Below, piece after piece: positions 8,039 through 8,130 of a stretch of 24,028 nucleotides of DNA. Below the pieces are notes generated by a model. That model saw only the letters and a list, made by a program, of their open reading frames with translations. It was not told the origin of the DNA and did not search any database. This DNA comes from Escherichia coli. Its GTDB lineage: Bacteria > Pseudomonadota > Gammaproteobacteria > Enterobacterales > Enterobacteriaceae. The stretch lies in the NCBI RefSeq assembly GCF_003334305.1, contig NZ_QOWS01000037.1. The stretch is one strand, 5' to 3'. Position numbers and translations under genes: made by a program. Every line of letters begins with the position of its first letter. The first letter of the stretch is position 1.

Positions 8039-8068
8039 CTGACAAATATCAATTAACAATTGATGATT

Positions 8069-8098
8069 TTGCCAACAGCCCACATAGCGCGATATACT
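8069..8098 (+). promoter_or_regulatory. Candidate rraA promoter
   Basis: TTGCCA (8069-8074), 18-nt spacer, TATACT (8093-8098), ~33 bp upstream of the rraA ATG. An rraA promoter in the menA-rraA spacer is known; exact hexamers here are my inference. Confidence 0.35.
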
Positions 8099-8130
8099 GA
8101 AAATTCTCGCAGCAACTGAATGTTAAGCCT

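Follow-up and report, generated by a model that had tools for sequence, protein, structure and literature searches.

The window, by which we mean the whole 24,028-nucleotide stretch of Escherichia coli DNA that was analysed, carries the genes hslU, menA, rraA, zapB (on the opposite strand), glpF and glpK, in that order. Of 5426 complete E. coli genomes, every one contains the part from 7900 to 8250, and its annotation there as menA and rraA confirms the gene identities. The two genes are separated by a short intergenic region (Table 1), and it is here that the original prediction had placed an inverted repeat just upstream of the rraA promoter. RraA inhibits RNase E, thereby shifting global mRNA stability, and to our knowledge little is known about the control of rraA apart from its dependence on sigma-S.

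Table 1. Features of the menA-rraA region by window position, with column identities from the 23 Enterobacteriaceae species that have a collinear 92-bp intergenic region
Feature	Positions	Strand	Column identity	Basis or remark
menA stop codon TAA	8036..8038	+		ORF 7100-8038; RefSeq annotation in E. coli genomes is menA
menA third codon positions			0.64	
menA-rraA intergenic region, 92 bp	8039..8130			
Candidate upstream promoter block CTGACAAATATCAATTAACAATTGATGATT, 30 bp	8039..8068	.	0.94-0.99	Directly 5' of the -35 hexamer
Promoter-like match CTGACA-17-GATGAT	8039..8067			9/12 positions, weak; overlaps the dyad
Extended imperfect palindrome	8040..8074	+		12-13 bp bulged stem if RNA; starts just past the menA stop, runs into the -35 hexamer
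Dyad	8048..8064		0.98	Repeat search
Dyad left arm ATCAATT	8048..8054	.	0.975	Repeat search
Dyad spacer AAC	8055..8057	.		Centre 8056, ~-49 from the predicted start
Dyad right arm AATTGAT	8058..8064	.	0.98	Within the order-wide conserved block AATTGATGATT-TTGCCA-ACA
Direct repeat AATTAAC/AATTGAT, 7 bp, slippage-prone	8051..8064	.		Overlaps the dyad
rraA promoter -35 hexamer TTGCCA	8069..8074	+	0.99	Promoter match; same as the published rraA promoter (PMC3946193)
-35/-10 spacer			0.77	
rraA promoter -10 hexamer TATACT	8093..8098	+	1.0	Promoter match
rraA coding sequence (RNase E activity regulator)	8131..8616	+		ORF and annotation
rraA third codon positions			0.86	

The sole good promoter match in the region is TTGCCA-18 bp-TATACT (10 of 12 positions), which Shimada et al. 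give as the rraA promoter, among the promoters selected by the RpoD holoenzyme alone in genomic SELEX (PMC3946193). According to the article that cites it (PMC11288022), primer extension by Zhao et al. (2006) identified a single, sigma-S-dependent rraA promoter in the intergenic region. Transcription is predicted to start at ~8104-8106, ~7 nt after the -10 hexamer, and the numbering used below, including the position of the dyad (~-57 to -41, centre ~-49), is reckoned from the -10 hexamer in the same way; the Cappable-seq supplements hold no entry at the expected coordinates of the rraA start. Within the 5' UTR, the motif GCAGCAACTGAAYGTTAA (8109-8126) is widely kept across Enterobacterales loci and the Shine-Dalgarno sequence looks weak, features that may be linked to the stability of rraA mRNA, which reportedly depends on RNase E. 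An 18-codon ORF at 8063-8119 begins in the right arm of the dyad and spans the promoter; we rejected it as coding, as its middle part coincides with the rapidly evolving spacer of the promoter and is not conserved, and its frame is kept only through the fixed length of that spacer. In the Term-seq data of Adams et al. 2021 (supplementary file 1; LB at OD 0.4, LB at OD 2.0, and M63), the neighbouring 3' ends on the minus strand of MG1655, the rraA strand, are that of the hslU terminator (4120362; window 7099) and a strong one 250 nt inside rraA (4119080; window 8381). A Rho-dependent region antisense to rraA in published Term-seq (MG1655 4119121, plus strand) is probably read-through from zapB.

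The repeat search returned a perfect inverted repeat, ATCAATT-AAC-AATTGAT, with arms of 7 nt that are 100% complementary and 3 nt apart. The repeat first reported, TCAATT-AAC-AATTGA at 8048-8062, is real, but its arms are 7 nt rather than 6 nt long and the interval was one base off, the quoted letters being the inner 6+3+6 of the dyad at 8049-8063. The dyad begins 9 nt past the menA stop codon, in agreement with the ~10 bp first estimated, and it ends 4 bp before the -35 hexamer, where a distance of ~20 bp had been assumed. Its A+T content is 82%.

Perfect palindromes of the 7+3+7 type number 4 in the window, against 1.8 +/- 1.5 expected from sequences simulated with a first-order Markov chain, and when spacers of 0-10 nt are allowed there are 44 against ~20 expected, much of the excess being G+C-rich hairpins. 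The symmetry of the dyad alone is therefore not significant for a 24-kb window. When the distal part is shuffled, the 14 nt immediately upstream of the -35 hexamer take part in a stem of at least 7 bp in ~2% of cases. Both arms contain the self-complementary tetramer AATT, so that four of the seven arm positions are complementary for free, and the two-fold symmetry of the dyad, though perfect, is probably incidental, arising from the AATT-based 7-bp direct repeat plus three more complementary bases. No second copy of the motif beyond chance was found in the window at up to three mismatches. A perfect 10+3+10 palindrome at 13977-13999, TATTCTTCAACAATTGAAGAATA, has CAACAATTG in common with the dyad; it lies inside an ORF on the minus strand (13741-14169), so that the resemblance is probably coincidental.

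The direct repeat has expanded in one natural isolate. In E. coli 2013C-3492, the only one of the 5426 genomes with 90-95% identity in this region, the unit AATTAAC is present at 5.9 copies (Tandem Repeats Finder consensus, ACAATTA), which amounts to a 21-bp insertion within the dyad (locus L081, 243-283; window 8051-8064). This expansion indicates that the sequence is a repeat in nature and that the exact geometry of the dyad is dispensable for viability.

To place the dyad in its evolutionary setting, we compared 80 rraA loci, one per species, from across the Enterobacterales, anchored on the promoter. Among the 23 Enterobacteriaceae species with a collinear intergenic region, conservation jumps at the menA stop codon and stays high through to the -35 hexamer, delimiting a conserved block at 8036-8074. 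Both arms and the spacer of the dyad, C and G positions included, are nearly invariant in ~25 Enterobacteriaceae species, and conservation in the family reaches -66 (CTGACAAAT), past the classical UP zone. Judged by the column identities (Table 1), purifying selection acts as strongly on the dyad as on the -35 and -10 hexamers. Among E. coli genomes, 5221 of 5421 (96%) share an identical 40-mer at 8036-8075, which comprises the dyad and the -35 hexamer, and 3914 of 5422 (72%) are identical over the adjoining 55 nt. Substitutions that break the symmetry occur in 7-8 Enterobacteriaceae species, with no compensation in the opposite arm. In Mangrovibacter yixingensis (locus L025, ~1403-1446), the whole upstream block and TTGCCA are absent (AGGACA stands instead) and TATACT is kept; among the loci compared, it is the only one in the Enterobacteriaceae without both the whole block and TTGCCA.

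Across the order, the promoter itself is stable: TTGCCA is conserved in nearly all of 79 Enterobacterales loci or occurs as a one-base variant, and the distance from the -35 to the -10 hexamer is 18 bp in all but two, followed by (G)ATATACT, with a spacer of varying sequence. In most of these loci TTGCCA is preceded by (C/T)TGATGATT, and the only part conserved throughout the order is the right arm together with TGATGATT-TTGCCA. The alignable set comprised 53 sequences from six families; in it, the stretch from the right arm onward (AATTGATG.TTTTGCCAACA) is invariant or at least 90% conserved (columns 25-32), and ATCAA of the left arm is not conserved. Outside the Enterobacteriaceae, positions -1 to -8 from the -35 hexamer are 64-97% conserved (most of them 77% or more) and positions -9 to -17 are 53-73% conserved, beyond which conservation is at background. 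The right arm occurs without the left in Yersinia, Rahnella, Hafnia and most Erwiniaceae, including Erwinia. Where both arms can be recognized, the loop between them measures 3 nt in the Enterobacteriaceae, 4 nt in Photorhabdus namnaonensis and P. caribbeanensis (ATCAATT-TAAT-AATTGAT), 8 nt in Pectobacterium and Brenneria (CATCAA-N8-TTGATG), 15 nt in an uncultured Cedecea and 19 nt in Xenorhabdus. Across the Enterobacterales, the left arm is either family-specific or placed at another spacing. In Edwardsiella, Proteus and Providencia, the proximal block has been swapped for an unrelated G+C-rich hairpin and the promoter has been kept.

In our preferred reading, to which we assign a probability of about 0.45, the palindrome would belong to an extended upstream region of the sigma-S/sigma-70 rraA promoter (~-37 to -66), with which the alpha-CTD of RNA polymerase, a factor, or both would make contact. 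The palindrome would act as double-stranded DNA; its A+T-rich stretch (two AATT motifs and an ATTTT run abutting the -35 hexamer) would most likely offer contacts to the alpha-CTD, as a UP element that departs from the consensus would, and a further putative DNA-binding factor may also use the block to set promoter strength. It is from the observed position and conservation of the block, together with the absence of RNA-level signals, that we infer the contact with the alpha-CTD or a factor. The strong conservation of the sequence points to a function that is read from DNA, and the way in which conservation decays with distance from the -35 hexamer is easier to reconcile with an element anchored on the promoter than with a symmetric operator.

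UP elements are reported (Ross 1993, Estrem 1998) to lie in the zone that the dyad covers (~-57 to -41), which is also a zone of promoter contact by the alpha-CTD. With the numbering derived from the -10 hexamer, the dyad falls within the -38 to -59 interval expected of an UP element and adjoins the -35 hexamer. It resembles UP elements of the rrnB P1 type in its location directly upstream of the -35 hexamer, in being 82% A+T, in a conservation anchored on the -35 hexamer, and in the presence of AATT and T-run motifs, with their narrow minor groove. UP half-sites have also been described at sigma-S promoters. A further likeness is that the rraA promoter is bound by the holoenzyme alone in genomic SELEX (PMC3946193), which agrees with an upstream element contacted by the alpha-CTD. 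Unlike UP elements, however, the dyad lacks the SELEX-derived consensus (neither the full form AAAWWTWTTTTNNNAAA nor NNAAAWWTWTTTTNNNAAANNN is matched in 8040-8068 even at three mismatches), its C and G positions are invariant, and it is a perfect palindrome, which an UP element does not need. Function of the UP type is usually tolerant of A/T-for-A/T substitutions, and the near-invariant C and G positions in the Enterobacteriaceae hint at base-specific recognition more than at an UP element. The reach of conservation to -66 in the Enterobacteriaceae and the loss of the proximal block from Edwardsiella, Proteus and Providencia, which retain the promoter, also count against the preferred reading.

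Such base specificity would be expected if the dyad were the operator of a putative dimeric transcription factor centred at ~-49, activating or repressing rraA, for example by growth phase, a reading that we regard as unlikely. The perfect 7+3+7 repeat just upstream of the -35 hexamer has the form of such a site, and the near invariance of arms and spacer, C and G included, in the family is a base-specific constraint of the kind that recognition by proteins typically imposes. Similar dyads are present in Photorhabdus, Pectobacterium and Brenneria, and the ends of the dyad, ATC-N11-GAT, bear what we take to be a resemblance to the T-N11-A boxes of LysR-type regulators, which may serve as a lead. 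The half-sites, however, are conserved together and at fixed spacing only within the Enterobacteriaceae and not across the order: the right arm persists without the left in Yersinia, Rahnella, Hafnia and Erwinia, and arm spacings that differ by lineage (3, 4, 8, 15 and 19 nt) would not be tolerable for a rigid dimer. The uncompensated symmetry breaks in 7-8 Enterobacteriaceae species and the 21-bp insertion inside the dyad of a natural E. coli isolate also speak against an operator, as does the lack of a second copy of the motif in the window.

Candidate factors did not improve the case for an operator. IHF sites are found at ~-50 of sigma-S promoters such as dps; the IHF core WATCAANNNNTTR has no match in the dyad at up to one mismatch, and by eye ATCAA is present on each strand, but the fit to the core has two mismatches. 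None of the consensuses of FNR, Fis, ArcA, PhoB/PhoP, Fur, SoxR, TrpR, BetI and others, compared by eye as leads, fitted the dyad. Full-text searches, from which most ChIP supplementary tables are closed off, returned no report of a transcription factor bound at rraA; the only ChIP or SELEX report for rraA concerns RNA polymerase itself, in the study of the RpoD holoenzyme. The original prediction had offered the dyad as such as the site of a growth-phase regulator, and this was not supported: the dyad abuts the -35 hexamer, its right arm is kept without the left, its spacing varies and breaks in its symmetry go uncompensated. The expansion in a natural isolate and the selection of the promoter by the RpoD holoenzyme alone (PMC3946193) tell further against it. 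On balance, the evidence speaks more for the dyad as a portion of an extended rraA promoter than for its being an operator.

A bolder proposal, which we hold to be improbable, concerns the block at 8039-8068 as a whole and comes in two variants: (i) the block is the site of a putative regulator conserved in the Enterobacteriaceae that ties rraA to a physiological signal, which would then reach RNase E activity via rraA expression, or (ii) the block is a dual DNA/RNA element, whose DNA form would serve the promoter and whose RNA form would arise on transcripts reading through from menA, where its pairing would span the -35 hexamer and insulate the promoter.

We also hold improbable the view that the symmetry is functionless and that the block is kept for some other cause, either the overlapping promoter CTGACA-17-GATGAT or the binding of H-NS or another nucleoid protein. 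The promoter-like match does overlap the dyad, chance alone should yield palindromes of this size in 24 kb, and the self-complementary AATT lets a direct repeat mimic a dyad. A second promoter, however, sits poorly with the one rraA promoter found by primer extension (Zhao 2006, to the extent that it is cited in PMC11288022), and CTGACA is one of the more variable stretches of the block, occurring also as CTGATA, CTGATT and ATGATG, while general nucleoid-protein binding would have no need for invariant bases.

A minor and likewise improbable reading is that the dyad acts in RNA, where the hairpin followed by GAUUUUG on menA transcripts would act as a weak intrinsic terminator, stabilise the 3' end or, as an insulator, reduce the read-through that reaches the rraA promoter. 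This idea draws on the other genera, several of which have a strong hairpin in the corresponding slot, at 0-8 nt before TTTTGCC, and on the T-run that overlaps the -35 hexamer in those genera, which could double as a terminator U-tract for menA. The slot hairpins reach -40 kcal/mol in Edwardsiella, -15 in Proteus, -14 in Providencia and -13 in Serratia silvae. They end 2-5 nt before TTGCCA or TTGCAA (L038/L039 Edwardsiella, L062/L063 Proteus, L075 Providencia and L043 Serratia silvae, all at ~1395-1440). In ~10 independent lineages, stems drawing on the 14 nt that adjoin the -35 hexamer occur more often than in shuffles (p <= ~0.05), and about half of the variant cells in the Enterobacteriaceae are still paired, via G-U. 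The pair TCAGTT/AACTGA in Serratia is a compensated version of TCAATT/AATTGA, but its left arm overlaps the menA Leu-Ser-stop codons, so that the compensation may be coincidental. Moreover, a hairpin of -8 kcal/mol or lower occupies the slot in only 9 of 46 genus-level groups. In the Edwardsiella and Proteus loci, the strong hairpins were passed over by the terminator scan because only 4 T come after them; these slot hairpins are terminator-like and not proven terminators.

In E. coli, the hairpin is weak. The 17-mer folds at -2.1 kcal/mol, a 29-mer at -3.7 kcal/mol and the longest extension, 37 nt at 8040-8076, at -5.6 kcal/mol; the extended palindrome, folded as RNA at this last energy, has a z of -2.96, and for the 106-nt intergenic RNA, shuffled versions fold at least as well (z = 0.41). 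The 7-bp stem holds a single G-C pair, and the T-run provides 4 U starting 2 nt after the stem, below the rule of 5 T in 8 used by the terminator scan, in which the dyad was not called. Covariation was also lacking: only one compensatory cell in 273 was found across the order and none in 216 among 30 Enterobacteriaceae, with all measures at or below the shuffled means in both sets. Sequence invariance of this kind without covariation is not expected of a purely structural RNA element. An Rfam scan of 7900-8300 gave only a spurious match to mir-245 (E = 0.84). Term-seq assigned no 3' end to menA in any of the three conditions, although a weak end might escape notice if menA transcripts are scarce. 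The region is like a Rho-independent terminator overlapping the next promoter in that a hairpin and a T-run follow immediately after the menA stop codon and G+C-rich hairpins fill the slot in other genera; it is unlike one in its A+U-rich stem (-2 to -6 kcal/mol), the 4 U after a 2-nt gap, the absence of a mapped 3' end and the absence of covariation. We therefore reject a stable RNA hairpin or terminator in E. coli on folding energy, terminator scan, Term-seq and covariation. The original prediction was right that the repeat is too A+T-rich for a stable RNA hairpin, and its preference for a role in DNA over one in RNA is borne out by the strong sequence conservation and by the absence of covariation, of an Rfam match and of a Term-seq 3' end assigned to menA.

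The dyad of the menA-rraA region is probably a case in which a self-complementary AATT repeat is able to pass for an operator. The 30 bp upstream of the rraA -35 hexamer, which in the Enterobacteriaceae are as conserved as the core hexamers, are a precise and inexpensive target for promoter dissection. Should a specific factor bind the block, it would be an added input to the regulation of RNase E; with no specific factor, the block would be one more extended, non-consensus upstream promoter element.
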